From Candidatus Electrothrix sp. GW3-4 (GTDB lineage: Bacteria; Desulfobacterota; Desulfobulbia; Desulfobulbales; Desulfobulbaceae), in assembly GCF_037902255.1 (NCBI RefSeq), contig NZ_CP147990.1, positions 1,230,001 to 1,262,000 of the forward strand: a stretch of DNA of 32,000 nucleotides, in the 5' to 3' direction. Made by a program: the position numbers and the translations under genes. Below, piece by piece: positions 5,416 through 20,498 of this stretch. The notes under the pieces are model-generated. The model ran no database searches. It saw nothing but the letters and a program-made list of their open reading frames with translations, and was not told where the DNA came from. Numbering within the stretch: the first letter of the stretch is position 1; the number at the start of each line of letters is the position of its first letter.

Positions 5416-6894
5416 ATGCGCGTCACCTTTCTCAATCCACCATTTATTAAAAATTTTTCTCGACCTCAACGCAGTCCGGCTGTCACCAAGAGCGGCACCC
5501 TCTACTATCCCATGTGGCTGGCCTCTGCCGCTGGCTATACTGAGGCGGGCGGGCATGCAATTGATCTTATTGATGCCCCGGCAGCTGATTTCACCGAGGA
5601 TGCTGTTATTGAGCGCATACGAGATTTCGGTAGCTCATTGGTGATCGTGGAAACCAGCACACCGAGCATTTACAATGACGTTAGTTTTTCTGAAAAATTG
5701 AAAACTACGTTGAGCAGAGAAGGGCAGGAGGTCTTTATCGTCCTCGTTGGTACCCATGTTTCTGCCCTGCCTGAGGAGAGCCTGCGCCTGAATGTCTCCG
5801 TAGATGCGATTGCCCAGGGGGAGTATGATGCCACGGTCAGGGAGCTCGCCGATGCCTTAGAAAACAGGCAGGAACCTGGAACCGTTACCGGGCTCTGGCT
5901 TCGGGATGGAGAAAAGATAATCCATACTGGTGAACGGTCTCCCCTCTCCAATGTCGATCAGATCCCCTTTGTCAGCTCGGTGTATAAGAGATTTCTTGAG
6001 CCGCACCATTATTTTAATCCCAATGCCCTGTTTCCTATGGTGACCATCACCACCAGTAGGGGCTGCCCGCACCATTGCTTCTTCTGTGTCTACCCGCAGA
6101 CCATGATGGGACATAGGCTACGCAATCGCAGCGTGGAGAATGTGGTGGATGAGTTGGAATATATCATTGCCCATTTTTCCGATATCAAAGCAATCTTTTT
6201 TGAAGATGATACCTTCCCGGCCAATAAGAAGCGGTGTATTGCTATCTGCGAAGAGATTATTCGTCGGAATATCCGGATATCCTGGACCGCCAATGCCCGG
6301 GTTGATTTGGATCAGGAGACTATGCGTGTCATGAAAAAGGCTGGCTGCCGCTGTCTCTGCGTTGGGTTTGAAAGCGGTAATCAGCAGCTTCTGGACCGGA
6401 TGAAAAAAGGTATTACCCTGGAACAGTCTCAAACCTTTATGGAGGCAGCCAGAAAGACAGGTATCCTGATCCATGGGTGCTTTATGGTTGGCCTGCCCGG
6501 AGAGACCCGGGAGACCATGCAGGAAACCCTGGACCTTGCCATCAGCCTCCAGCCTGATGCGATCCAGATGTATCCGGTCATGGTCTATCCTGGCACAGAG
6601 GCCTATGCCTGGTACCAACAGAAGGGGTTGATTACCTCAAAGGATTTCTCCCAATGGCTGACCCCCTCAGGTCTTCATAACACGGTTATTCATGGGGAGG
6701 AACTCTCTGCTGAGGAACTGGTCAGGTTCTGTGATGAGGCACGGAAAAAGTTTTACTTGCGGCCTAAGTATATCCTGTATAAGTTCGTCCAGATGCTGCG
6801 CCATCCCGGTGAAATCCGGCGTACCCTGAAATCCGTCCGTACCTTTGCAAAATATCTCCTCTTTGGCTCTGATGTACAAAAGGAGCCTATATGA
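5416..6894 (+). CDS. B12-binding-domain radical SAM enzyme (class-B-like)
   Basis: 492 aa. An N-terminal Rossmann-like B12-binding-type domain is followed by TSRGCPHHCFFCVYPQ (CxxxCxxC radical SAM motif) and GFESGNQQLL. Confidence 0.8.
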   Translation: MRVTFLNPPFIKNFSRPQRSPAVTKSGTLYYPMWLASAAGYTEAGGHAIDLIDAPAADFTEDAVIERIRDFGSSLVIVETSTPSIYNDVSFSEKLKTTLSREGQEVFIVLVGTHVSALPEESLRLNVSVDAIAQGEYDATVRELADALENRQEPGTVTGLWLRDGEKIIHTGERSPLSNVDQIPFVSSVYKRFLEPHHYFNPNALFPMVTITTSRGCPHHCFFCVYPQTMMGHRLRNRSVENVVDELEYIIAHFSDIKAIFFEDDTFPANKKRCIAICEEIIRRNIRISWTANARVDLDQETMRVMKKAGCRCLCVGFESGNQQLLDRMKKGITLEQSQTFMEAARKTGILIHGCFMVGLPGETRETMQETLDLAISLQPDAIQMYPVMVYPGTEAYAWYQQKGLITSKDFSQWLTPSGLHNTVIHGEELSAEELVRFCDEARKKFYLRPKYILYKFVQMLRHPGEIRRTLKSVRTFAKYLLFGSDVQKEPI

Positions 6895-6910
6895 CACAAA
6901 CTCCCTGAGT

Positions 6911-7915
6911 ATGCCCGATTTTTCAGTTATTGTTCCGGCCTGGAACGCGGAAAAAACTCTTGTGCGCTGTCTCAAAAGCCTCACTCGACAAACCCTTGCT
7001 CAAGAGCGCTATGAGATCATCATAGTGGATGACGGTTCAACAGATCGAACGGCTGATATTGCCGATCAGTTTTCTGTCGTATATCATTATCAGGAGAATC
7101 AGGGGCCTGCGGCAGCACGTAACGCAGGTGTCTCCCTGGCAAAAGGCGCTGTGATTTTTTTTACAGATGCGGATTGTGTGCCGGACCCTGACTGGTTGGA
7201 GGAGATGTCTGCCCCTTTTGCGAGACCTGAGGTTGCAGCTGTCAAGGGGGCATATCGTACAGAACAAAAGGAGCTTATCGCCCGTTTTGCCCAGATTGAA
7301 TTTGAGGAGCGTTTTTTGATGCTGGAGCAAAGGGAGACCATTGATATGGTGGATACCTACTCAGCTGGTTTTAGGAAAGAAATTTTTTTAGGTTTGGGTG
7401 GCTTTGACACCCGTTTTCCCAAAGCTGATAATGAGGATACTGAATTTTCCTACCGGATGGCGGAACACGGTTACACGATGGTTTTTACCCACCGTGCCTT
7501 GGTACGCCACCTGAATCACCCGGACTCCGTCCTTCGCTATTTTCGCTTGAAATTCAGCAGAGGGTACTGGCGGTTAATGGTTTATCGGATGCATCCTGAA
7601 AGAGCGGTGAAGGACTCCTATACCCCGCAAACGCTCAAGTTGCAGATTATCGCTCTGTTTCTGGGGATGATCACACCGTTTATTCTTTTTTTCTCTCCCT
7701 TCATGGGAGGAATCTTCCTGGCCTGTTTTTTCCTTTTTTACTTAGCACTTACCTTTCCCTTTTTTCGTGTCGCCTATAAGTATGACAGGGCTGTGGCTTT
7801 CCTTTCCCCATTATTACTGGCTTTGCGGGCTGGAGCCCTTGGAAGCGGTCTTCTGTGGGGGGGCATGCGGCTCTGGTTGGGGCATGATGTCTTTGGACAA
7901 GAAGAAAGGAAATAG
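6911..7915 (+). CDS. Glycosyltransferase family 2 with C-terminal membrane region
   Basis: GT-A family 2 blocks: MPDFSVIVPAWNAEKTLVRCLKSL, IIVDDGSTDRT and FTDADCVP (DxD). The last ~90 aa are hydrophobic. Start placed at ATG 6911, because the ORF-track start at 6845 would overlap the radical SAM gene by 50 nt. The exact start is uncertain. Confidence 0.8.
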   Translation: MPDFSVIVPAWNAEKTLVRCLKSLTRQTLAQERYEIIIVDDGSTDRTADIADQFSVVYHYQENQGPAAARNAGVSLAKGAVIFFTDADCVPDPDWLEEMSAPFARPEVAAVKGAYRTEQKELIARFAQIEFEERFLMLEQRETIDMVDTYSAGFRKEIFLGLGGFDTRFPKADNEDTEFSYRMAEHGYTMVFTHRALVRHLNHPDSVLRYFRLKFSRGYWRLMVYRMHPERAVKDSYTPQTLKLQIIALFLGMITPFILFFSPFMGGIFLACFFLFYLALTFPFFRVAYKYDRAVAFLSPLLLALRAGALGSGLLWGGMRLWLGHDVFGQEERK

Positions 7916-8205
7916 AAGTAACCAAGGCACGGAATCAAGTAGTGCGGTTAAATTATTGATCTGGTCTGGGGACGCAGCAAGAGCTCTGTGGTTCTGTTCT
8001 GGCAGATTCGCGCTGTTGACTGACCTGTTTTTCTTTACCCTGAGAGATAAATGGGCTATGCTCAGGCGAGCTTGAGCAGATTCTGGCTATTTTTTTGTGC
8101 AGGAATTTTGGCCTGTGTTGTCAAAAAAACAACAGCTGACCAGTGCTGGCTTGAGCAGAGTTATTGAAGAAAACGCAATGATAATGAGAAAAGGAGAAGA
8201 GCTGA

Positions 8206-8658
8206 ATGAGTGAGGACAACAAGGTGCAGCTGCCTATGGGGATCAAGGAAATTCTTGACCTCTTGCCGCATCGATATCCTTTTATTATGCTGGATCGGGT
8301 CTTGGATTTTGAGCCTGATAAAACAATAACTGGCCTGAAAAATGTGTCCATGGGCGAGCCTTTTTTTCAGGGGCATTTTCCAGGCGAACCTGTTATGCCC
8401 GGAGTCCTGATTCTTGAGGGTATGGCCCAAGCCGGGGCCGTGTTGGCCTATCTTTCCACCGAAGACATTGCTGGAAAACTCGTGTACTTTGCCGGAATGG
8501 ACAAGGTTCGTTTCCGCAAGGTGGTACGACCCGGTGATCAGCTGATTTATAAAGTGGAATTGGTTCGGCGAAAAAGCAAACTCATCAAGGTGCAGTGTCA
8601 TGCCTATGTTGATGATGTCCTGGTGACCGAAGCCGAGCAGCTGGCCACGTTTTCTTGA
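8206..8658 (+). CDS. fabZ: 3-hydroxyacyl-ACP dehydratase FabZ
   Basis: 150 aa. LPHRYPFIMLDRV and FFQGHFPGEPVMPGVLILEGMAQ are the FabZ hot-dog active-site signature. AAGGAG-type RBS upstream (aaaaggagaagagctgaATG). Confidence 0.95.
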   Translation: MSEDNKVQLPMGIKEILDLLPHRYPFIMLDRVLDFEPDKTITGLKNVSMGEPFFQGHFPGEPVMPGVLILEGMAQAGAVLAYLSTEDIAGKLVYFAGMDKVRFRKVVRPGDQLIYKVELVRRKSKLIKVQCHAYVDDVLVTEAEQLATFS

Positions 8659-8748
8659 TGTTGTCCCTTTTTGTCACAGGACAAGGTGCAGCACATGTTG
8701 CTTATTAGACTGTTGGCCTAACCAGAGGCTGACAAAGGAATACTATAA

Positions 8749-9549
8749 ATGACTATACATGCTACTGCCGTGGTTGATCCACAGGCGGAAGTTCATGAAA
8801 CCGCTTCCGTTGGTGCATATAGCGTTGTCGGGCCTCATGTCTCTATCGGTCCCAACACGCTCATCGACGCACATGCAGTGATCTCTGGGCATACCCGTAT
8901 CGGAGCTGATAATCATATCGGTTCTTTTTCTTCTCTTGGAACGCCGCCACAGGATATCCATTATCAGGATGAACCGACCGAGTTGATTATCGGAGATGGA
9001 AATAGGATACGGGAATATGTCTCTATCCATCGAGGAACGGTTTCCGGGGGAGGAAAGACGGTTATTGGCAATAAGAATATGCTGATGGCCTATTGCCATG
9101 TGGCCCATGATTGTATTCTCCATGATCATGTGATTATGTCCAATGTGGCAACTCTGGGAGGCCATGTGGAGGTGGGCAGTTATGCCAATCTTGGTGGCTT
9201 GGTAGCTGTTCATCAGTTTTGTCGTATAGGGGCCTATACCTATGTTGGAGGGATGTCAGGTATTTCGCTTGACGTGCCCCCTTATGTTATTCTGACCGGT
9301 ACCAGAAATAGGATGCGCATTGCCGGGGTCAATAAGATCGGTATGCGGCGTAACGGCATGTCTCGGGAAGCGGTTAATGATATTGATCGTGCCTTTAGAA
9401 TTATTTTCCGTTCCTCCCCGCAGGTTCTGGTTAAAGAGGCTTTGGCCCAGGTAACCCATGAATTTCCTGATTCCAAAGAGGTTCGTATCTTAGTGGATTT
9501 TTTCCGAGAGAGTAAACGCGGTGTGGTGAAACGCACCGAAGACAGCTAG
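8749..9549 (+). CDS. lpxA: Acyl-ACP--UDP-N-acetylglucosamine O-acyltransferase LpxA
   Basis: 266 aa. Left-handed beta-helix hexapeptide repeats cover the first ~190 residues (IHATAVVDPQAEV..., IGPNTLIDAHAVISGHTRIG...), followed by a C-terminal helical domain. Canonical position after fabZ. Confidence 0.95.
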   Translation: MTIHATAVVDPQAEVHETASVGAYSVVGPHVSIGPNTLIDAHAVISGHTRIGADNHIGSFSSLGTPPQDIHYQDEPTELIIGDGNRIREYVSIHRGTVSGGGKTVIGNKNMLMAYCHVAHDCILHDHVIMSNVATLGGHVEVGSYANLGGLVAVHQFCRIGAYTYVGGMSGISLDVPPYVILTGTRNRMRIAGVNKIGMRRNGMSREAVNDIDRAFRIIFRSSPQVLVKEALAQVTHEFPDSKEVRILVDFFRESKRGVVKRTEDS

Positions 9550-9563
9550 AACGCGCACTGTAC

Positions 9564-10397
9564 ATGTCAACACCGATCGGACTTATTGCCGGAGGAGGGC
9601 AGTTCCCTCTGCTTTTTACCGAAGCGGCCCAGGAGCGCAAACGCAGAGTCGTTGCGGTTTGTCACCAAAACGAGACGCAAGCGGAGCTTGAGCAACGCGC
9701 TGATATTTCCTGTTGGGTAAAGCTGGGTCAGCTGGGTAAAATCATCCGTTTTTTTCATGAACAGGGCGTTCGTGAGGCTGTTTTTTGCGGTACCATCACC
9801 AAGACCCGGATGTTTAGAGATATCCTCCCGGATTTTAAGGGGCTGAGTCTCTGGAATAAAATTGACAGACGACTGGATGATGCCATCCTGCGGGCAGTGG
9901 CCGGGGCGCTTGAGGAAGAGGGAATCAAGGTGCTGGCCTCGACCTGTTATCTTGAGCATCTTTTTTTTCCAAAAGGGGTCTTAGGAAAGAAAAAGCCCTC
10001 CCAGGAGCAGTTGGCAGATATTCATTTTGGCTGGCGAATTGCCCGTGAAATAGGACGACTGGATATTGGTCAATGCGTTGTGGTTCGCGAGGGGGCAGTG
10101 TTGGCCGTTGAGGCCATAGAGGGGACGGACGCAGCAATACGTCGGGGCGGGGAGCTCTCAGGATCAGGGGCCGTGGTTGTCAAGCTGAAGAAACCAGGCC
10201 AGGATTTTCGTTTTGATCTGCCTGCCACCGGGACCAAGACTATCGAGACCTTGGCCTCGGTGAAGGGGGCTGTACTGGCTGTTGAGGCTGGGCAGTCCCT
10301 TCTTTTTGATTGCGAGGCCATGATTGCTGCTGCTAACCGGGCTGGTATTGCCGTCGTTGGAGTGCAGGAGGATGAGTCTGGCGAATTGCTCTTCTGA
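9564..10397 (+). CDS. lpxI: UDP-2,3-diacylglucosamine diphosphatase LpxI (DUF1009 family)
   Basis: 277 aa. IGLIAGGGQFPLL at the N-terminus and DIGQCVVVREGAVLAVEAIEGTDAAIRRGG...VVVKLKKPGQDFRFDLPATG match LpxI signature blocks. Position after lpxA, as in genomes that use LpxI instead of LpxH. Confidence 0.8.
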   Translation: MSTPIGLIAGGGQFPLLFTEAAQERKRRVVAVCHQNETQAELEQRADISCWVKLGQLGKIIRFFHEQGVREAVFCGTITKTRMFRDILPDFKGLSLWNKIDRRLDDAILRAVAGALEEEGIKVLASTCYLEHLFFPKGVLGKKKPSQEQLADIHFGWRIAREIGRLDIGQCVVVREGAVLAVEAIEGTDAAIRRGGELSGSGAVVVKLKKPGQDFRFDLPATGTKTIETLASVKGAVLAVEAGQSLLFDCEAMIAAANRAGIAVVGVQEDESGELLF

Positions 10398-10419
10398 ACA
10401 GCAATGTTAGGGTAAGCCA

Positions 10420-11649
10420 GTGAAGAGCAAGCAGAAGATACTGAAGGTGCTCCTGCTGACGACCTCCTTCCCTTTAACCAGGGAGTCAAGGAGCGGTATC
10501 TTTATCCAAAAAATGATCAACCAGCTGCCTGATAATGTGCAGGTAACTGTGCTGACTCCAGACAGTGCCAGCGCTGCCCTCCAGCCCTCTGGAGAGTACT
10601 CTGTCCTTCCCTTTCGCTACGCGCCCAAACATTGGCAGCAACTCGCCCATGGTTCCGGTGGAATCATGGCTGCTCTTTCGCGCAATAGGTTGCTTCTTCT
10701 TCTCCTTCCTTCTTTTCTCTGCTCCAATCTGCTGGTCTGCTGTTATGCTGCGCGTAAGATGGATATTCTGCACGCTAATTGGTCGATTAACGGGGTTATC
10801 GCCGGAATTGTCGGGTTGATTTTAGGAAAACCGGTCCTGACCACCTTACGGGGCAGCGATGTTAACCTGATGGAAACATCAGCTTTGATGCGTCGGTTGG
10901 TGCATTTCTGTCTCCGTTTCAGTAATGTTGTTGTTACAGTCAGCCCTTCTTTGCAACAAAAACTTACAGAACGTTTTCCCCAATACAGGGCAAAGATCGG
11001 AGTTATTTGTAATGGCATTGATCAGGCTTTTTTTGCTGCTGAGGATATTCAGGAAGAAGTAGAAGAAGGCTGTTCCGCATCAGGACAAGGGAAAAGATCT
11101 CTCCGTTTTTTATATGTGGGAAATCTGGTCCCTGGTAAAGGGGTGGATATTATTCTTCAGGCAGCAGCTTCCTTGCCTTCGGAGAATTGGCAGCTTGATA
11201 TTATCGGTGACGGACCGGACCGGAAGGCATTAGAGGGGTATTGTCAGAAGCAGGGCCTGGAGAGCAGGGTCACCTTTCGCGGTTCAGCTCCACCAGAGGA
11301 AATACCGCATGCCATGGCCCAGGCAGATGTCTTTGTCTTTGCCAGCTTTGCCGAGGGAAGGCCGAATGTCGTGCTTGAGGCTATGGCGGTTGGCCTGCCT
11401 GTGATAGCCGGAGCAATCCCAGCGGTATCGGATCTCATTGAAAGCGGGCAACAGGGCCTTCTTTTCCCTCCAGGGGATGTCAGGGCCTTGGCAGGACATA
11501 TGACATCTCTTCTGCAGGATTCGCTCGCACGGCAAAGGTTAGGGAACAAGGCCAGGCAGTCTCTTGCATCCTCAGGATTGAGCTGGCCCGAGTCAGCCAG
11601 ACACTATCTCTCCGTTTATACAGATGTTGTTGAGGGGGAGTGTAGTTGA
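10420..11649 (+). CDS. Glycosyltransferase family 4 (GT-B, retaining type)
   Basis: 409 aa with a GTG start. The N-terminal Glyco_trans_4-like half is followed by a C-terminal EGRPNVVLEAMAVGLPVIAG block (E-x7-E signature). It does not resemble LpxB (GT19). Confidence 0.8.
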   Translation: MKSKQKILKVLLLTTSFPLTRESRSGIFIQKMINQLPDNVQVTVLTPDSASAALQPSGEYSVLPFRYAPKHWQQLAHGSGGIMAALSRNRLLLLLLPSFLCSNLLVCCYAARKMDILHANWSINGVIAGIVGLILGKPVLTTLRGSDVNLMETSALMRRLVHFCLRFSNVVVTVSPSLQQKLTERFPQYRAKIGVICNGIDQAFFAAEDIQEEVEEGCSASGQGKRSLRFLYVGNLVPGKGVDIILQAAASLPSENWQLDIIGDGPDRKALEGYCQKQGLESRVTFRGSAPPEEIPHAMAQADVFVFASFAEGRPNVVLEAMAVGLPVIAGAIPAVSDLIESGQQGLLFPPGDVRALAGHMTSLLQDSLARQRLGNKARQSLASSGLSWPESARHYLSVYTDVVEGECS

Positions 11650-12707: not shown

Positions 12708-13109
12708 TTAGATGGTTGTTTCAAGCGGATAAAGCTTCAGCATAATGTCAAGAAGTTCTGCTTCAAAGGATTGCATAACCATCTTGGTCCTGCCAAGCCA
12801 TTCGGTACGATCGGTCATAACAAAGAGAAAAAAGGGGAGGTTCGTGAGGTCTCTGATGATAAAATGATGTTGACCGGTACTGATAATGATATCGTCTGTT
12901 ACCTCATCATTGGCAAGCAGTTTAATCGCCTTACGATTTGATTTCACGATGGAGGAGAGGTAGGCGGCTGCCACACCCGCTTCAATCTCCGGTTGTACAC
13001 TCAGCTCGGCCAGTGACAGGCCGTCATCGCAGTTCACAACCGCAGCTGTTAAAAAACCTGGTAGTTTTTTTTCAAGTCGGTCCAGGAGGGGAGGAAGTTG
13101 CTTTATCAT
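12708..13109 (-). CDS. Roadblock/LC7-like domain protein
   Basis: LPGFLTAAVVNCDDGLSLAE...AAAYLSSIV...HHFIIRDLTNLPFFLFVMTDRTEWLGRTKMVM fits a Roadblock-like pattern. Start placed at the internal ATG (13109). The ORF-track TTG start at 13184 is possible. Neither has a clear SD, so the start is uncertain. Confidence 0.45.
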   Translation of the reverse strand: MIKQLPPLLDRLEKKLPGFLTAAVVNCDDGLSLAELSVQPEIEAGVAAAYLSSIVKSNRKAIKLLANDEVTDDIIISTGQHHFIIRDLTNLPFFLFVMTDRTEWLGRTKMVMQSFEAELLDIMLKLYPLETTI

Positions 13110-13264
13110 GGGGAGAAATCCGGTCAGAGTTTTGAGACGGTACGTATTGTAGTGTTGTAGTGCTGTGGCGCGTTGAGGTTGCAAGGTCTTGCTGCGTGCG
13201 AGGTGCCTCTCGAAAAAAGGTTCGCGTTATATGTTTTCGCCTTTGCCTTATTGCAGGGGGAAAT

Positions 13265-14047
13265 TCATTTCTCTGCATTACTGAACAGGGGAAGCAGGCG
13301 GACAGGCCGCTCTTTGTCTTTACTGATCATTCTGGCATCAAATATAAACCCTGTTCTTCCTGGAAGCCCGTCGGTAATTGCCGATCTCCCAAAGGTTTTA
13401 CGCAGAAAGAGATAGCGCGATGAAAAAAACAGGGCGCCCAGTTCGCTGTCCCAATGCACAGAAACAGGATTTTTATATTTTAACAGAAAAAGAGAGTACG
13501 GCAAAGCAGGATTCACATAAAGAATAACGTAGGAACCGATAACCGCCTTGGAAACCGCGTAAAGCTTATTGCCGTAGGAGGGATGGTTCATATCAGTGGA
13601 AATGCTGTCAAGCAGAGCTATTATGGCCTCGCTGTCCACGGAGCCGATCCTGTCGCCGCTGATTGCTTGCTGGGCAAAGATGAGGTTGTCATTGGTAATT
13701 GTGCCGTTATGTACCCCGACAATATTTCCTCGGATAATAGGATGATTATTAACGTTTTTTTGAGGAGTTCCCTTGGTCGGCTCCCGGGTATGACCTAACA
13801 GAATCGTTGTCTTTTCGGACAGGGAATCCAGCACCTGGAGATACCCTGAGGATTGGACGAATTGGCTCGCTCTTATCGGGGCCTTGTTCACCCGTAGACT
13901 GGAATCGTTATTCAAGAGGGCGATACCCGTGGCCTCCCGCCCCCTTTGTTCATTGGCGAGTAGGTTGGCAGAAAACAATTCCCTGATCCGGCGGAGCTGG
14001 GGAGGGGTTCTGCCAGGGCTGATGAGGATACCGTTAATTCCGCACAT
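13265..14047 (-). CDS. Stand-alone class-II (Ntn-type) glutamine amidotransferase domain protein
   Basis: 260 aa. It begins MCGI (catalytic Cys2 after Met removal), then QRGREATG, GHTREPTKG...NNHPI, VHNGTITND and SVDSEAIIALL, the canonical PurF/AsnB/GlmS-type GATase blocks. No fused synthase domain. It starts 21 nt after the upstream stop. Confidence 0.8.
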   Translation of the reverse strand: MCGINGILISPGRTPPQLRRIRELFSANLLANEQRGREATGIALLNNDSSLRVNKAPIRASQFVQSSGYLQVLDSLSEKTTILLGHTREPTKGTPQKNVNNHPIIRGNIVGVHNGTITNDNLIFAQQAISGDRIGSVDSEAIIALLDSISTDMNHPSYGNKLYAVSKAVIGSYVILYVNPALPYSLFLLKYKNPVSVHWDSELGALFFSSRYLFLRKTFGRSAITDGLPGRTGFIFDARMISKDKERPVRLLPLFSNAEK

Positions 14048-14068
14048 GGCTGCTTGTTATCTCTCTGG

Positions 14069-15358
14069 TCAGCGGAGAAAAACCATGCTGCCCAGTTCTT
14101 CCTGCCAAACCGGGGACCGGTTTTTGTAGTTTTGCAAGCGTTCGTTGATCTCGTTTACCGGAAGCTGCAAAAAGAGGGCTGCTGCGTCAAACCAGCACTC
14201 TTGATTGCCGATATCTGTCAACAGCCCTAATTCAATAAGCTTAATGAGCTCATAATCTGTGCTGTCCAGGGTGGGTTGTGGGCTGATATAACTGAGGAGT
14301 TCATCCTCAATCTCTTTCCATTCTTTGCCCTGACTTCTTCGAAGAGAAATCGGCTCTAAAGCCAGTTGTTGTAGCACCAGTTCACTGGGGTTATCAAGGA
14401 GGAGAAAGATGGATTTGAGGAAAAATAAGAGGCCTTGAGCGTTGTTTCTATATTTTTCCAGAGCGCTATCGTCAATGGCGCTGGTGTCACTGGTCGCCAG
14501 CTTGCCCTCGTTATTACTGATCATATTTATGAGCTCTTTGCTGGTCTCGAAAAAAGGAACGCTATCAACCTTGAGAAGGCCGAATTTGGAGATCTCAACC
14601 GCCTTGAGCATCATGGTCATGAACAGGAAGGTTTTGGCCGTGATTGATACCGGACAGATATCGCCGTCTGGAAAACGGAGTTCTAAGTGAAAATTGGCAA
14701 TCTTGCCGGACGTGCTAAAGCGAACATGTTCGAGATTGAAAAAATTTTGGTGTTCCGGCACCTCCAGACTTTTTTTCAGTATCGTCTGGATTTCTGCCAT
14801 CGACTGTTTTTCTGGGGACAGGCGCATGAATTCCTGATGGGCATTATGCTGTCGTCGTCGACAAAGGGCCTGTCGATCTTTACCGGTTGAGGTGATAAAC
14901 TTAAGCCCAGGCGCAAAAAGACGGGCCATGTTCCAGAGATTTGCCAGGATAATTTCAGGGACTTCTTCTGAGAGACCTGTTCCGAGGATATGGAAATGAA
15001 GGCCGCAGGTAGGACGCATCCTGATTTTTTCTGCCAGTAAGGGCAGGACGATCCGTTGATATTGATTGAGCAGGGCATCCCAGTGAGGATGGCGCCCGAT
15101 CACCAGGACCTCAATACCGCAATGCTCTTTGATGACATCATAGACCCCCAGCTCACCCAGTTGATGCATATCCCCCGAGGGTTGCAAGGCCTCTTCAATG
15201 CGAGGTTGAAAATCCTGGCGCAGCACCCCTTTGGGAAGGGCAAACTCCAGCTCAGTGCCGATCTTGACAGCTCGGTAGAGAAGATCCTGGAAATAACGAG
15301 CATCAGGCAGCGTTAATACATTGGGCCGATTGAGAAAACTGGGACGGAAATTGAGCAT
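14069..15358 (-). CDS. Putative ATP-dependent amidoligase (glutamine synthetase / gamma-glutamylcysteine ligase-like fold) with uncharacterised C-terminal extension
   Basis: Start trimmed to ATG 15358 (429 aa). IGTELEF (res 33-39), CGLHFHILG (118-126) and FHLELRFPDG (223-232) match my recollection of the GxExE, HxH and ExR blocks of the amidoligase family. The C-terminal ~170 aa match nothing I recognise. The upstream 270 nt of the ORF-track call overlap the neighbouring gene and translate to P/H/S/R-rich nonsense. Confidence 0.5.
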   Translation of the reverse strand: MLNFRPSFLNRPNVLTLPDARYFQDLLYRAVKIGTELEFALPKGVLRQDFQPRIEEALQPSGDMHQLGELGVYDVIKEHCGIEVLVIGRHPHWDALLNQYQRIVLPLLAEKIRMRPTCGLHFHILGTGLSEEVPEIILANLWNMARLFAPGLKFITSTGKDRQALCRRRQHNAHQEFMRLSPEKQSMAEIQTILKKSLEVPEHQNFFNLEHVRFSTSGKIANFHLELRFPDGDICPVSITAKTFLFMTMMLKAVEISKFGLLKVDSVPFFETSKELINMISNNEGKLATSDTSAIDDSALEKYRNNAQGLLFFLKSIFLLLDNPSELVLQQLALEPISLRRSQGKEWKEIEDELLSYISPQPTLDSTDYELIKLIELGLLTDIGNQECWFDAAALFLQLPVNEINERLQNYKNRSPVWQEELGSMVFLR

Positions 15359-15453: not shown

Positions 15454-15930
15454 CTACTGTTCTATCAGAGTGAACGTAATCGTGGAACCGTGCGTTTCCG
15501 GGATAGGAGTAATGGCCTTTTGGGCTGGTTTTCCCATGCGGATGAGGGCAGCTTGACAAACGTTCATGATTGGGCAGGTAAAGGGAATATCCACCCCTGT
15601 CTTGAGAATGGACTGGGTCAGGTTCCATCCCTGACAGTGGTTGACGGACAGAGCAATTTTATTTCCTTCTTGCTCGGTGCTGAAGGATTCTATAAAACCC
15701 ATTTCATCAGCAAAAATCCGACCGATTTCAGTAATGACATTCTTGGGATCCTCGCCTTCGACCTCAAGTCCCATTTCCTGTTCCATGATTTCCAATGTGG
15801 ATTTCCCGACTTCGCTCATGGTGGCGAAAGCTGTTTCACCAAATAAATCATAGAGCGCCTTGGCCATGCCCGCAATCATTAAGGTCATGAGGCGCATCAT
15901 ATTTTTTTTCTTTTGTTCTTCGGTAGCCAT
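15454..15930 (-). CDS. Small soluble protein, possibly V4R-like (small-ligand-binding) domain
   Basis: Start moved to the second ATG (15930), which is preceded by AAAAAGGGGGA. The C-terminal IALSVNHCQGW...FTCPIMNVCQAALIRMG...GSTITFTLIE loosely resembles the Cys-containing core of V4R/hydrocarbon-binding domains. This is a weak assignment. Confidence 0.3.
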   Translation of the reverse strand: MATEEQKKKNMMRLMTLMIAGMAKALYDLFGETAFATMSEVGKSTLEIMEQEMGLEVEGEDPKNVITEIGRIFADEMGFIESFSTEQEGNKIALSVNHCQGWNLTQSILKTGVDIPFTCPIMNVCQAALIRMGKPAQKAITPIPETHGSTITFTLIEQ

Positions 15931-16075: not shown

Positions 16076-17206
16076 TTATAATGACTTGCGAAGCTGGTCA
16101 AGATAACGCTGGGCGACCAGGCGAACGTTGCCCAGGGTTCCGTCCCGACTTACCGCGATTCCAACATAATATTGAGGGGTGATGAATCTGGTGAGTATCC
16201 AGGCGTTTTGTGACTGGACCAGATTCTCCTCAAAATCTCCCATTCCCTGCAGTGAGTCAATAGATTTTTCGACAAGTTTCATAACCATAGCAAATTTTGC
16301 TGAAAATGCTTCAACGTCTGTTCCTGTTGGATTATGGAGTGCGATTGTGATGCCGTCCATACCTGTTACCTGGATTGCAAGGACGCCGTCCATTTCGCCA
16401 GCCATTTCTTTGAGCAGCTCTTTGATCCCAGCCATTTTACTCTCTCCTTTAAGTGATTGTTGTTTCTTCTTTTGTTGTTGTATACGGATGAATTCTTGCT
16501 TAACCAAATCCAGAGGTCTTTCTTTCATAGCCGTATCCTTACGGTGTGCGGCCTCAAGCAGAAGCGACATGAGTTCGGACTGAATCTTGGGTTCTGGGAG
16601 AGGCGGCGCAAGTTTTTTCATGCTGAGCCGGACATTATCCCAGGTCAGCATTTCAAAAACCGCTTCTTCACCTATGAAATTATCATATATCGCATCAATG
16701 AGTTTGCCCTCTGTAAAAAAGAGATACCCTCTTTTGCCATTGGGATGCGCGACCTTCAATGCTGCTGTTTTTTGTTCCATAGCAACAATTTGAAGAAAAT
16801 TGGCAAGCGAAATACCGGCCAGTCCGTCGTTCCGATGTTCATGGAGGTCCAGGGCCCGGTTGATCGCCTGTTCCAAGGCATCAATGTCAAGAGGCTTTTC
16901 AAGCACCTCCATAGTTCCTGCTTTTTTCAGCTGCTGCTCCATCACTGGGGTACCAAAGGCTGTCATGACGATATTGGGAACCTTGGGAAAAGATTCTGTC
17001 ATGGCTGCGAGCAGCTCAACCCCGTCCATGACGGGCATTCTCAGGTCGGTAACAACAAGGTCCATCGGTATTTTCGATAAGATATCAAGGGCCTTCTGTC
17101 CGTTATGAGCGGTAGTTATCTGGAAACGATCATTTTTTTCAAAACCTGAGCTGATACTGAGAAGCAGTTCCGGCTCATCATCAACAATGAGTACTTGTTG
17201 TTTCAT
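16076..17206 (-). CDS. Response regulator: REC - DUF4388 - Roadblock/LC7 fusion
   Basis: 376 aa. REC: VLIVDDEPELLL...DLVVTDLRMPVMDG...VMTAFG...EKPLD. DUF4388-like: GISLANFLQIVAMEQKTAALKV...GYLFFTEGKLIDA...GEEAVFEMLTWDN. A KKKQQ linker is followed by a C-terminal Roadblock-like part: MDGVLAIQVTGMDGITIAL...AWILTRFITPQYYVGIAVSRDGTLGNVRL. Confidence 0.75.
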   Translation of the reverse strand: MKQQVLIVDDEPELLLSISSGFEKNDRFQITTAHNGQKALDILSKIPMDLVVTDLRMPVMDGVELLAAMTESFPKVPNIVMTAFGTPVMEQQLKKAGTMEVLEKPLDIDALEQAINRALDLHEHRNDGLAGISLANFLQIVAMEQKTAALKVAHPNGKRGYLFFTEGKLIDAIYDNFIGEEAVFEMLTWDNVRLSMKKLAPPLPEPKIQSELMSLLLEAAHRKDTAMKERPLDLVKQEFIRIQQQKKKQQSLKGESKMAGIKELLKEMAGEMDGVLAIQVTGMDGITIALHNPTGTDVEAFSAKFAMVMKLVEKSIDSLQGMGDFEENLVQSQNAWILTRFITPQYYVGIAVSRDGTLGNVRLVAQRYLDQLRKSL

Positions 17207-17247: not shown

Positions 17248-17976
17248 TTATTTCTTTTTTTGCAGTCGAGTAAATTCTCGTCTGACCTTATCTAAGGGGG
17301 GAGCATCACCATATTGTTCTTTATGATAGGGCACCCCAGAAAGGAGAGGCCACAGCTGAGATTGTTCATCAGTCGGAATTGATGAGGGGCGGAATTCTTT
17401 CATGCTTACTCTGAACCCTTGCCACTCCAGCATCGCCAAGACCGCCTCATCACCAGTCAGGTCCCCTTGCTCTGCATCAATGAGGTAACCTTTGCGGAAA
17501 AAGAAACTGCCGTGTTGCTTATCAACATCAATGACCTTTAAGTGAACAGTTTTTTTCTCCATCGCAATAAGCTGGAGAAAGATATCCAACTGTGGCCCTC
17601 CGTTACGATTATGATAAAAATCAAGGGCGTTATTGATCGCCTGTTCGAGCGTTTCGAAATCTAGAGGTTTTTCCAGAAGATACATCGTTCCTGCCTTTTT
17701 GAGTTGTTGTTCCAGGCAGGAGGTTCCAAAAGCAGTCATAACAATGCTGGGAATCTCTGGAAAGGACTGAGTCATGGCCGCAAGAAGGTCTATTCCGTCC
17801 ATCTTAGGCATTCTGAGATCTGTGACGACAAGATCGATAATATTATTTTCGAGAATATCGAGTGCATCCATGCCATTATCTGCTGTCAAGAGCTGGAAAT
17901 GACCATTATTTTTAAAGCCAGCACGGATACTGAGAAGGAGTTCCGGCTCGTCATCAACAATGACTACTTGTTTCAT
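17248..17976 (-). CDS. Response regulator: REC - DUF4388 (tandem paralog of 16076-17206, no Roadblock domain)
   Basis: 242 aa. It is collinear with the downstream paralog through REC and DUF4388. REC identity is roughly two-thirds by eye; the DUF4388 part is clearly more diverged. Phospho-acceptor context DLVVTDLRMPKMDG. Confidence 0.75.
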   Translation of the reverse strand: MKQVVIVDDEPELLLSIRAGFKNNGHFQLLTADNGMDALDILENNIIDLVVTDLRMPKMDGIDLLAAMTQSFPEIPSIVMTAFGTSCLEQQLKKAGTMYLLEKPLDFETLEQAINNALDFYHNRNGGPQLDIFLQLIAMEKKTVHLKVIDVDKQHGSFFFRKGYLIDAEQGDLTGDEAVLAMLEWQGFRVSMKEFRPSSIPTDEQSQLWPLLSGVPYHKEQYGDAPPLDKVRREFTRLQKKK

Positions 17977-18446: not shown

Positions 18447-20498
18447 ATGAAAACTGAAAAGGTTTGTATACTCCTTGTTGATGATGACCCGCTGATTTTA
18501 GCTATTCTGCGCTATATTCTTGAGCATGAACAGTATACGGTGCTGGATGCACAAAACGGTCGTTGTGGGTTGCAACTTGCGGAAGAGGAGCAACCTGATC
18601 TTATCTTGCTTGATATTAATCTTCCAGATATTAATGGATTTTCTGTATGTAAGCAGCTGAAAGAGAATAAGAAAACGAAGGGTGTCCCTGTTATTTTTCT
18701 CACCGCTACCGGCATGGAAGGGCACGAGTATAGAGGGTTTGAAGAAGGGGCTGTAGATTTTCTGCGCAAGCCGGTGAATAAGGCCCAACTCTGCGCCCGG
18801 GTCAATAATGCCTTGGATATGCAAGCTGCTCGGCAGAAACTGGAACAGCAAACCCTGGACCTGGAGCGGGCAAACGCGTTGCTCAAAGAGGCCTTAGCGA
18901 GTCAACAGCGAACAAGCTGTAACTTAGTGCAGAGGGATCATATCCTCAGTTCCGTGAATTATGTGGCAAAATCGTTTTTAAAGACAGATAATTGGGAAGA
19001 GATTATAAAAAATGTACTTAAGTACTTAGGCGAGAACATAGACAGTGAACATGTTTACCTGAAAACCTTTGAGCCACAGATCGCGCAGCGACGCCATTAT
19101 ACCTGGTATAAAACCAATAACACGATTACCTGCTCAAGTATTGATTTGCTGGCAATGTGGAGGCCGCCCATCGAATTATTGTCTGGGGGGGCGATAAGCG
19201 GGCCTGACGCTCATGTGCCTCATTTCCTCTGGGGGGAGTTTGAGAATAATAACATCCGTACCTATCTTATCCTGCCTATCTACGTCTATAAACAGCTCTG
19301 GGGCTGTATTGGTTTCGATTGCAGTCTTGCCGGGCGATCCTGGGCTGAACCGCTTGTTGAGGCGATGAAGACCTCTTCCGATATCATAGGAACCGCAATT
19401 CAGCGAACCTTTGAGTCCAGGGAACGTACTCGGCTGGCCGCAGCAATCAATGAGTTTGCTGACTGTGTGCTTATGACGGACAAGGTCGGGACGATATTTT
19501 ATGCCAATCCCGCCAGTACACAGATTACCGGTTATCTTCCTGAAGAGTTGGTTGGCTTGAAGTTGAGTCAGGTCCAGCATGATGAGCAGAATCGCTTTGA
19601 CTGTCGTGAGGTCCTGAACGCGGTGGCAGGAGGGGCAGAATGGCATGGCGAGATCAAGAATCGTCATAAAGATGGGACATTTTACGACGAGTCTGTAGCG
19701 ATTATTTCGGTAAAAGGAAAGTTGAACAGGGTCAATAGTTTTTGTGTTATCAAGCACGATCAGACAGAGAAAAAGCGGCTTGAATCCATAGCTGAAGCGG
19801 CCAATTTGATGGATAATGTTGGTTTTGTTTTTTCTGGAATCAGGCATGAGTTGGGTAATCCCTTGAACTCGTTAAAGATGGCGATCAGTGTCTTGCTCAG
19901 ACAATTAGGAGATCTTCCTCTGGATAAGATTAAGGAGTTCCTGGATCGCTCTATGGGCGAAATTAAACGGATGGAGTATCTTCTCTATTCGTTGAAGAAT
20001 TTTAACATTCTGGAAGAACAGAAACTTGTCCTGACAGACCTTGCCGCCTTTTTGGAGAATTTTAAGCGGGTTCATGAAAAAGATCTGCTGGGAAATGGTG
20101 TAAAGATGGAGCTGCATATCAAGACGAATGCCCGTGGTCTTGTTGATGAACGGGTCTTGCATCAAGTCTTCCTGAATCTGTTGACGAATGCGGTCAATGC
20201 CCTCCAACATACCTTAGCACCGCTTATATCTATCCATCTTTTGCGAAAAGATGACCAATTTGTCCAGATGATTTTTCAGGATAACGGTTGCGGGATTTCC
20301 GAGCAGGTGAGGAAGCAGCTTTTTAAACCGTTTTTTACCACCCGGGCCAAAGGAACCGGCTTGGGCTTGACCATTGTTAAAAAAATGCTCACTTCGATGA
20401 GCTGTACTGTGAGTATAGAAGGGAAAGTGGGCAAGGGGACCCGTATCATTATCACCTTACCAACGGAAAAGAGCGCCTCCCCAAGAGCTAAAAGATAA
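18447..20498 (+). CDS. Hybrid signalling protein: REC - coiled coil - GAF-like - PAS - HisKA - HATPase_c histidine kinase
   Basis: 683 aa. REC: ILLVDDDPLIL...DLILLDINLPDINGF...FLRKP. GAF-like: YLILPIYVYKQLWGCIGFDC. PAS: CVLMTDKVGTIFYANPASTQITGYLPEELVG...WHGEIKNRHKDGTFY. H-box: FSGIRHELGNPLNSL. N/G boxes: LLTNAVNAL, FQDNGCGI, GTGLGLTIV. Confidence 0.85.
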   Translation: MKTEKVCILLVDDDPLILAILRYILEHEQYTVLDAQNGRCGLQLAEEEQPDLILLDINLPDINGFSVCKQLKENKKTKGVPVIFLTATGMEGHEYRGFEEGAVDFLRKPVNKAQLCARVNNALDMQAARQKLEQQTLDLERANALLKEALASQQRTSCNLVQRDHILSSVNYVAKSFLKTDNWEEIIKNVLKYLGENIDSEHVYLKTFEPQIAQRRHYTWYKTNNTITCSSIDLLAMWRPPIELLSGGAISGPDAHVPHFLWGEFENNNIRTYLILPIYVYKQLWGCIGFDCSLAGRSWAEPLVEAMKTSSDIIGTAIQRTFESRERTRLAAAINEFADCVLMTDKVGTIFYANPASTQITGYLPEELVGLKLSQVQHDEQNRFDCREVLNAVAGGAEWHGEIKNRHKDGTFYDESVAIISVKGKLNRVNSFCVIKHDQTEKKRLESIAEAANLMDNVGFVFSGIRHELGNPLNSLKMAISVLLRQLGDLPLDKIKEFLDRSMGEIKRMEYLLYSLKNFNILEEQKLVLTDLAAFLENFKRVHEKDLLGNGVKMELHIKTNARGLVDERVLHQVFLNLLTNAVNALQHTLAPLISIHLLRKDDQFVQMIFQDNGCGISEQVRKQLFKPFFTTRAKGTGLGLTIVKKMLTSMSCTVSIEGKVGKGTRIIITLPTEKSASPRAKR

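Follow-up and report, generated by a model that had tools for sequence, protein, structure and literature searches.

We examined a 32,000-nucleotide (nt) stretch of DNA from Candidatus Electrothrix sp. GW3-4 (contig NZ_CP147990.1, positions 1,230,001 to 1,262,000; hereafter the window), in which an earlier note had described a pair of genes, placed here on the minus strand, one for a ligase with the fold of glutamine synthetase (GS) and the next for a stand-alone class-II glutamine amidotransferase (GATase)-type protein. This pair was found to belong to a three-gene cassette (V4R-like, ligase, GATase) that occurs in at least nine phyla. The third conserved member, a protein of the V4R/Bet3 fold, is newly recognised here; the earlier note had seen the ligase/GATase pair correctly and had missed both this partner and the surrounding context of PATAN and Roadblock regulators (Table 1). 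Judged by its sequence, the ligase appears to keep an intact catalytic set while falling, by score, in no curated family, and we propose that it forms a co-expressed enzyme pair with the GATase.

Eighty cassette loci were fetched from species-representative genomes. The GATase lay directly downstream of the ligase on the same strand in 67 of the 74 loci with sufficient flank, and the V4R-like gene was found upstream of the ligase in 68 of 70. Spacers between ligase and GATase (70 loci) had a median in the high teens of nucleotides, with seven pairs overlapping by 1 nt. Both the 21-nt gap and the downstream frame of 260 amino acids (aa) reported for the window were confirmed, and the conservation of the pair bears out the tight coupling claimed for it. 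By record titles the cassette was observed in Desulfobacterota, Acidobacteriota, WOR-3, Coatesbacteria, Chloroflexota (most of the fetched loci), Cyanobacteria, Calditrichota, KSB1 and Bacteroidota, and a locus from Thiorhodovibrio frisius adds one more phylum to this range. Chromosomal cassette ligases shared 46-52% identity across phyla. The ligase and V4R-like genes persisted at loci where the GATase was missing or degraded (7/74).

Two reductions of the GATase were seen among cable bacteria. In Ca. Electrothrix gigas all that is left of the gene, between the ligase and its next neighbour, is a remnant of the C-terminal end (L008:9294-9417), and Ca. E. laxa gave a partial GATase match of about 150 aa only (L007:9594-10100); either may reflect gene decay or an assembly error. 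A further locus contained two ligase-GATase pairs inverted head-to-head (L061:5891-10114), meeting at about 8001-8004, which is probably a palindromic assembly artefact. Judging by record titles, a good number of the carriers of the cellular cassette come from filamentous or gliding lineages, among them cable bacteria, Chloroflexota (Anaerolineae and others), Coleofasciculus, Caldithrix and a metagenome-assembled genome labelled Cytophagia.

Table 1. Coordinates within the window of the cassette genes, their domains and the neighbouring genes
Feature	Coordinates	Strand	Basis or remark
Ligase open reading frame (ORF), 429 aa; GS-fold carboxylate-amine ligase	14069..15358	-	ORF, motifs, homologs, AlphaFold 2 (AF2)/Foldseek, hhalign
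Ligase catalytic domain, residues 1-260	14579..15358	-	Invariant columns; residues 73-256 align to phage Amidoligase_2
Ligase C-terminal domain, residues 261-429	14069..14578	-	All-helical with terminal beta-hairpin (AF2 secondary structure)
Ligase-GATase spacer, 21 nt	14048..14068	-	Ligase stop to GATase start
Stand-alone class-II (N-terminal nucleophile, Ntn) GATase-type amidohydrolase, 260 aa	13265..14047	-	Pfam GATase_6, GlmS domain, conserved residues
V4R/Bet3 (TRAPPC3)-fold protein, 158 aa	15454..15930	-	AF2 and Foldseek; PF27323 'RdxA_C' by precomputed annotation
Response regulator, REC + PATAN (DUF4388) + Roadblock/LC7	16076..17206	-	Pfam
Second response regulator, REC + PATAN-like	17248..17976	-	Pfam
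158-aa protein 3' of the GATase	12708..13184	-	No Pfam match; BLASTP E=10 over Roadblock region
Roadblock/LC7-domain protein, 179 aa	12076..12615	-	Pfam Robl_LC7 E=8.4e-6
Two-CW domain protein, 113 aa	11692..12033	-	NCBIfam NF045718 E=1.6e-25; last of same-strand string

Gene, fold and family of the ligase

Both the ligase and the GATase frames are real genes. The ligase stop ends at 14069, and its ATG was placed at 15358 because homologs of about 428 aa begin at the same point. The longest mechanical frame at this locus, of 519 aa with a start at 15628 and a 175-nt overlap with the upstream gene, was ruled out as the true ligase by the same homologs. A database search returned 514 homologs at E<=1e-3, the best from Ca. 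Electrothrix (85% identity, E=5e-250), and some database entries label such homologs 'Amidoligase enzyme'. All of the motif blocks quoted for the 429-aa product were found, at residues 32-39 (KIGTELEF), 117-126 (TCGLHFHILG) and 222-233 (NFHLELRFPDGD), with motif residues invariant across 27 sequences from several phyla. The conserved residues of the catalytic domain comprise E36/E38, H79-C80-G81-x-E83, C118-G-L-H121-x-H123, N140, C166-RRR, H224-x-E226-x-R228 and D231. Among 68 diverse family members E36, E38, E83, H121, E226 and R228 were invariant, and H123 and H224 nearly so.

Scans against Pfam, NCBIfam and PHROGs profiles, PF12224 (Amidoligase_2) included, gave no match for the window ligase even at E=10, and the outcome was the same for 26 orthologs and 10 distant relatives. 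Over the whole set of scans, in which the C-terminal domain was covered as well, the sole exception was one weak PHROG 'amidoligase' match (P0162, E=0.042). There was no Pfam or NCBIfam match to the GCS2/YbdK family (PF04107, which includes EgtA), to which the ligase is alike at the fold level only, and at the sequence level neither GS type III nor GCS2 families were matched. Nothing relevant came from the PDB sequences either, whether these were searched with the ligase sequence itself or with a profile. Plain searches with Amidoligase_2, GCS2 and GS models, which the earlier note had proposed, therefore came back empty in a way that mimics a refutation of its amidoligase-like assignment.

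An AF2 model of the ligase (mean predicted local distance difference test score, pLDDT, 85.9; predicted template modelling score, pTM, 0.80) was searched against the PDB with Foldseek, and the top 50 matches were all GS-fold ligases (GS/GCS2/GmaS/Dop/GCL, the last being glutamate-cysteine ligase). The best was GS 5dm3 (E=1.5e-5, probability 1.00), and template modelling (TM) scores ranged from 0.33 to 0.47. Other matches included YbdK/GCS2 structures 1r8g and 1tt4 (TMt 0.46-0.47), Glu-Cys ligase, gamma-glutamylmethylamide synthetase 9qur/7cqn, the 1-naphthylamine GS 8x6z (NpaA1) and Dop (E about 6e-4 to 1e-3). Against viral models, almost all named matches were phage or giant-virus 'amidoligase'.

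Seven phage amidoligases, including LUZ24 gp18 and phiEco32 gp84, were fetched as controls. When four of them were scanned with PF12224, three passed its gathering threshold of 22 bits, scoring 24-39 bits, and the fourth fell short at 17 bits. By hhalign, the narrow ortholog profile (A1) gave no significant alignment to phage amidoligases, nor did the ortholog profile to LUZ24 gp18 alone or to E. coli YbdK (probability 0.4%). The profile that succeeded was A6, widened with distant relatives from an exhaustive HMMER search; it aligned to the phage Amidoligase_2 profile (A5) over 163 columns with a probability of 97.4% (E=1.4e-11), and a comparison of profile A3 with A5 gave 94% (E=1.1e-7). The A6/A5 alignment pairs HCG..GxE with DGSL.GxE, CGLHFH with CSTHVH and FHLELRF with SIEFR, so that the catalytic residues of the ligase stand opposite their invariant counterparts in the phage amidoligases. 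Thus the description of the ligase as GS-fold and amidoligase-like stands, on Foldseek matches (PDB and viral) and on profile-profile homology to Pfam-confirmed Amidoligase_2 proteins. It appears to represent a remote clade related to the Amidoligase_2 superfamily and lying outside every Pfam model.

The boundary of the roughly 170-aa C-terminal extension, which had been given as nt 14069-14578, was confirmed. The last helix of the catalytic core spans residues 236-256 in the AlphaFold model, and the alignment to classical phage Amidoligase_2 stops at residue 256 without covering the C-terminal domain; since core helix and alignment end at the same residue, we regard the boundary as sound. A Pfam scan of the domain returned noise only. 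It was kept in 27 of 27 ligase orthologs, and distant phage-borne clades match the profile to position ~427, that is, through this domain, in which L329, P336 and W389 were nearly invariant (68 sequences). Because it is kept throughout the clade, including phage-borne relatives with different neighbours, the helical domain is integral to the clade and not an adaptor tied to this one gene context.

An exhaustive HMMER search of 1.84 billion representatives returned only 258 clusters for the whole ligase family. A word-indexed search from the distant clade found no relative carrying any Pfam ligase domain, and tblastn of one distant relative against phage genomes gave no match. The more distant relatives sit on phage-like contigs. 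Three of these ligases, of ~530-590 aa (L084:7001-8737, L085:7001-8689, L086:4122-5810), carry a Cys-rich insertion (~100 aa) after the GxExE strand. In this Cys-rich clade the ligase was still followed directly by a GATase_6 gene, and the neighbours comprised two COOH-NH2_lig, two GATase_6, RimK-like, GNAT and helicase genes and weak RNA-polymerase-like matches. An intermediate clade of 436-aa ligases (L097:7001-8311, L098:173-1483) was observed on ~150-kb phage-like contigs of small same-strand ORFs, with its GATase_6 genes a few genes off, ~2 kb away and not adjacent. The V4R-like and PATAN genes were specific to the cellular ligase clade.

These relatives raise the alternative that the pair is a phage-derived remnant, an auxiliary metabolic gene pair with no function in the host. 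Its nearest relatives outside the cellular clade are indeed on phage-like contigs, and the superfamily is best known from phages, but no phage genes were found among the scanned ORFs of the window, the same chromosomal cassette recurs across phyla at the ligase identity given above, and all catalytic residues are conserved. We consider this explanation barely credible and rejected a prophage remnant.

Partner proteins and genomic neighbourhood

The GATase gene runs from an ATG at 14047 to a stop ending at 13265, and its product begins with MCGI. It matched Pfam GATase_6 at 33.6 bits (cut-off 27; E=4.6e-8) and the N-terminal glutaminase domain of GlmS (profile, E=2.6e-15; PDB 1xff, E=4e-4). In GlmS, C1 is the nucleophile, R73 binds the alpha-carboxylate, N98-G99 form the oxyanion hole and D123 binds the alpha-amino group; T76 and these residues align to C2, R88, T91, N114-G115 and D138 of the window protein, each of which was at least 99% conserved in 72 orthologs, and the MCG start was kept in 99% of them. 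The earlier statement that this protein carries all class-II GATase blocks and no synthase domain was borne out, with catalytic and glutamine-pocket residues all present. The frame closes with a stop codon, and the next gene, which is unrelated, comes after a spacer of 80 nt, so that no synthase or acceptor domain of the GlmS, PurF, AsnB or GltB type is fused to it. Since orthologs with full-length matches measured 249-285 aa, the protein is a complete, stand-alone class-II GATase-type protein, and a fragment of glmS, asnB or purF was ruled out.

Two further comparisons placed the GATase among its relatives. It shared 25% identity (E=5e-11) with the N-terminal part of the LUZ24 GATase that follows the amidoligase in that phage. 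When plasmids were searched by tblastn for GATase relatives with an annotated amidoligase beside them, the matches were limited to glmS and a single gene with the annotation 7-cyano-7-deazaguanine synthase (29.5% identity), in which a GATase may be fused to that ligase as ammonia donor.

The start of the V4R-like gene was set by a conserved MATEExKK N-terminus. M1 was invariant in both alignments, whereas A2 and K7 showed no variation among the 30 sequences of one and were conserved to at least 90% among the 32 of the other; this unusual conservation might mark a modification or docking site. We also observed conservation of E56, E68, R71, D75 and E76 around the second helix, and two conserved Cys. 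An AF2 model (pLDDT 90.2) matched Bet3 1wc8 (E=2.8e-5, TM 0.54-0.60), and further Foldseek matches were the phenol-sensing V4R proteins PoxR/MopR and Asgard TRAPPC3, overall at E 3e-5 to 2e-3 and TM 0.5-0.6. Sequence searches with the same protein gave noise only against Pfam at E<=10, with no V4R profile match, and its profile found no match among PDB sequences. Precomputed annotation of homologs assigns them to Pfam PF27323 ('RdxA_C'). The V4R/Bet3 fold is a ligand-binding one with internal cavities (PMC10933270).

Upstream of the V4R-like gene there was nearly always, in several phyla, a response regulator with REC, PATAN and often Roadblock/LC7 domains, and histidine kinases and further receivers were observed near the cassette. 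By Pfam scan the window's PATAN/Roadblock regulators are without DNA-binding domains. PATAN regulators govern type IV pilus-based movement in cyanobacteria (bioRxiv 10.1101/2021.06.11.447907), and PATAN genes have been found near the polarity genes MglA/MglB (PMC4316618). We found no paper that combines V4R, amidoligase/GATase and PATAN/Roadblock.

On the other side of the cassette, the protein encoded at 12708-13184 could be aligned, weakly and without significance (E=10), to the REC-PATAN-Roadblock regulator over its Roadblock region, and was kept after the GATase in Desulfobulbales-type loci. At locus L053 a two-CW gene was observed between the V4R-like gene and the ligase. A hybrid histidine kinase gene (REC-PAS-HisKA-HATPase; 18447-20498, plus strand) is divergent from the operon, and the plus-strand genes beside it at 5416-11649 are unrelated housekeeping and envelope genes, including those for a B12-binding radical SAM protein, glycosyltransferases and LpxI. 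A promoter/terminator scan of the region was at chance level overall; its top promoter-like site (10/12 matches, 18078-18051, minus strand) lay upstream of the first response regulator.

Proposed chemistry and its rivals

Tentatively, we read the ligase and GATase as writer and eraser of a gamma-glutamyl-type amide, placed either on a small amine or on a protein group. The ligase, with a predicted chemistry of ATP-dependent amide-bond formation, would turn a carboxylate into an acyl phosphate and couple it to the amine of a small ligand or protein group; the carboxylate is most likely that of the glutamate side chain (gamma). Hydrolysis of the resulting gamma-glutamyl-type amide, by way of a thioester on Cys1, would fall to the GATase-like enzyme, and the V4R-like protein may bind or carry the substrate or product and pass its state to the PATAN/Roadblock regulators. 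Pairs of a GS-fold gamma-glutamyl-amine ligase and a gamma-glutamyl hydrolase of GATase type are known from PuuA/PuuD, EgtA/EgtC, the GmaS pathway and the gamma-glutamylation of aniline and naphthylamine, and to our knowledge all characterised partnerships of this type work by making and removing a gamma-glutamyl group. We favour the writer/eraser reading because of these precedents, because a substrate must present a free alpha-amino acid head group to fit the GATase pocket, because phage cassettes carry a gamma-glutamyl cyclotransferase and because there are genomes that have kept the ligase but not the GATase.

Several points weigh against this reading. A literature search turned up no biochemical work on this clade or on any Amidoligase_2 protein. 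The pocket residues of a class-II GATase are the same in a gamma-glutamyl-amide hydrolase and in an ammonia-supplying glutaminase; it is by analogy and from this pocket that glutamate is suggested as the carboxylate substrate, and it is gene order that suggests the role given to the V4R-like protein. A plain add/remove cycle on a free metabolite would be futile unless it is regulatory or has an intervening step. Tight translational coupling is typical of heteromeric amidotransferases too, and the nearest plasmid relative of the GATase, under its 7-cyano-7-deazaguanine synthase annotation, is a possible ammonia-donor fusion.

A heteromeric glutamine-dependent amidotransferase is the main rival, and we judge it somewhat unlikely. 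Ammonia released from free glutamine by the GATase would be channelled to the ligase, which would convert an ATP-activated carboxylate, of a metabolite or of a protein Glu or Asp, to the carboxamide. The full glutamine pocket and Cys1 are conserved, the very short or overlapping spacers are as expected for subunits made in equal amounts, and the pair is kept in unrelated contexts; the plasmid match just described and the routine annotation of the GATase_6 domains of phage cassettes as amidotransferases point the same way. Ammonia-donating class-II GATase domains are normally fused to their synthase, however, and some loci retain ligase and V4R-like gene with a missing or degraded GATase (seven of 74, including the Ca. 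Electrothrix gigas remnant); the Pfam view of the neighbouring GAT-like protein as a thiol peptidase also speaks against this rival. We know of no characterised GS-fold ligase that draws ammonia from a GATase subunit; free ammonia or amines are used.

The eraser could also act on protein. In a pupylation-like tagging system the ligase would add an amino acid or short peptide to the V4R-like or Roadblock protein and the GATase-like Ntn enzyme would de-tag it. The depupylase Dop is among the structural matches of the ligase, the N-terminus of the V4R-like protein (M1, A2, K7) is unusually conserved, and the cassette is always beside small regulatory proteins and not metabolic enzymes. We nevertheless regard tagging as quite improbable: no Pup-like small disordered protein was recognised in the operon, where small ORFs were not searched for systematically, the neighbours lack a conserved C-terminal Gln or Glu, and the C-terminus of the V4R-like protein is variable. 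Phage relatives have the ligase-GATase pair without V4R-like or Roadblock genes, so the target of tagging would not universally be one of these.

The structural matches to gamma-glutamylmethylamide and 1-naphthylamine gamma-glutamyl ligases, together with the shared logic of ligase plus hydrolase, would also fit a PuuA/PuuD- or GmaS-like pathway that breaks down or detoxifies amines by gamma-glutamylation, without any signalling role and with neighbours that only control expression. This appears very improbable. Conserved genes for a transporter, oxidase, dehydrogenase or aminotransferase are lacking beside the cassette, where the conserved neighbours are instead V4R-like, PATAN-REC and Roadblock proteins and histidine kinases, and the ligase has no sequence-level membership of GS type III or GCS2. 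Moreover, the PATAN/Roadblock regulators have no DNA-binding domains, which makes it unlikely that they simply control the transcription of a catabolic operon.

Extending the writer/eraser reading to its setting, the cassette could be a signalling device, in which the ligase as writer and the Ntn amidohydrolase as eraser would control how much of a gamma-glutamyl-type small molecule, or of such a mark on protein, is present and a V4R/Bet3-fold reader would relay it to PATAN/Roadblock regulators of polarity and motility. We hold this to be unlikely as a whole. If true, it would be a non-nucleotide 'second messenger' or a reversible-modification circuit, one that cable bacteria have in common with Chloroflexota, cyanobacteria and others and that is linked by evolution to the amidoligase cassettes of phages. 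The clade offers a cellular, highly conserved version of the amidoligase/class-II GATase (GAT-II) pair with an informative genetic context, so that solving its chemistry would give a function to a superfamily widespread in phages and could uncover a regulatory metabolite, or a mark on protein, of a kind not known so far. Even a plain amidotransferase would provide the first substrate for the family.

Comparison with known systems

EgtA/EgtC of ergothioneine synthesis in mycobacteria, with which the pair had been compared, likewise act on a gamma-glutamyl intermediate; EgtA is a ligase of the GS fold (a GCS2-type gamma-glutamyl-cysteine ligase) and EgtC a class-II GATase-type amidohydrolase that stands alone. 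The relation proved to be one of analogy only, and membership in the ergothioneine pathway was ruled out: the window GATase scored 20 bits (E=3.5e-4) against the EgtC equivalog TIGR03442, which has a cut-off of 218.65, and no EgtB- or EgtD-type genes were found among the ORFs scanned in the window. Unlike EgtA, the ligase has no GCS2 profile match and no significant hhalign match to YbdK, and its context is one of signalling and not biosynthesis.

PuuA/PuuD, GmaS with N-methylglutamate synthase, and the aniline and 1-naphthylamine systems share the logic of a GS-fold ligase with a GATase-type hydrolase. In contrast to the window ligase, the PuuA, GmaS and arylamine ligases can be recognised from sequence as true homologs of GS type I/III. 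Among the hydrolases in these amine gamma-glutamylation systems, several are class-I (triad) GATases, and the transporters and oxidative enzymes found near them are absent here.

PafA/Dop have the same GS/GCS fold and rest on the same principle, a regulatory mark in the form of a gamma-glutamyl isopeptide that is first made and then cleaved. Both pupylation enzymes are GS-fold, whereas the putative eraser of the window is an Ntn hydrolase, and there is no sequence similarity. Neither a Pup-like gene nor one for a proteasome could be recognised in the operon, where no systematic search for small ORFs was made.

The V4R-like protein shares its fold with V4R/Bet3 proteins and has two conserved Cys, as do Zn- or ligand-binding V4R proteins (PMC10933270). 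It differs from the known ones in being stand-alone, in its MATEExKK N-terminus, in standing always beside the ligase and in matching no model of the Pfam set searched.

The closest known kind is the cassette of Amidoligase_2 (PF12224) and class-II GATase in phages and plasmids, such as LUZ24 gp18/gp19 and phiEco32 gp84/gp83. Iyer, Abhiman, Burroughs and Aravind reportedly predicted amidoligase plus GAT-II cassettes computationally in 2009 (Mol Biosyst), and are said to have predicted peptide tagging for related ligase/GAT-II systems. The Pfam description of Amidoligase_2 notes a conserved neighbourhood with a GAT-II-like protein, which it treats as a thiol peptidase. This neighbourhood was found here at 67 of 74 loci, and the phage controls have the same order; the linkage that the earlier note had mentioned is thus real in phages, where the amidoligase is followed immediately by GATase_6 in the fetched cassettes. 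Among the literature found, such cassettes are discussed by annotation or as speculative auxiliary genes only (PMC3890496, PMC10945688), and we found no experimental characterisation of GS-fold amidoligase/GAT-II pairs.

The window cassette resembles these phage cassettes in its motif series (GxExE; (D/H)(G/C)(S/G)...GxE; C-(S/G)-x-H-x-H; ExR) and in a ligase followed at once by a GATase_6 protein, homologous to the window GATase at the E value given above for LUZ24. The classical phage order is COOH-NH2 ligase, amidoligase, GATase and RimK-type ATP-grasp, followed in LUZ24-like phages by gamma-glutamyl cyclotransferase, and the presence of the last two indicates gamma-glutamyl chemistry. Unlike phage Amidoligase_2, the window ligase has no PF12224 score, has HCG in place of DGS and carries the conserved 170-aa C-terminal domain. 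Its GATase measures 260 aa, against about 490-850 aa in phages UFV-P2, LUZ24, LAh_6, phiEco32 and 7-11. The window cassette is chromosomal, without COOH-NH2_lig, RimK or gamma-glutamyl cyclotransferase (GGCT) partners, and is joined instead to the V4R/Bet3-fold protein and PATAN/Roadblock regulators. Fold, motifs and gene order are therefore of an already known kind, shared with the predicted Amidoligase_2/GAT-II cassettes, while the profile-invisible clade, the C-terminal domain, the short GATase and, above all, the chromosomal signalling context with its V4R-like partner are new here.

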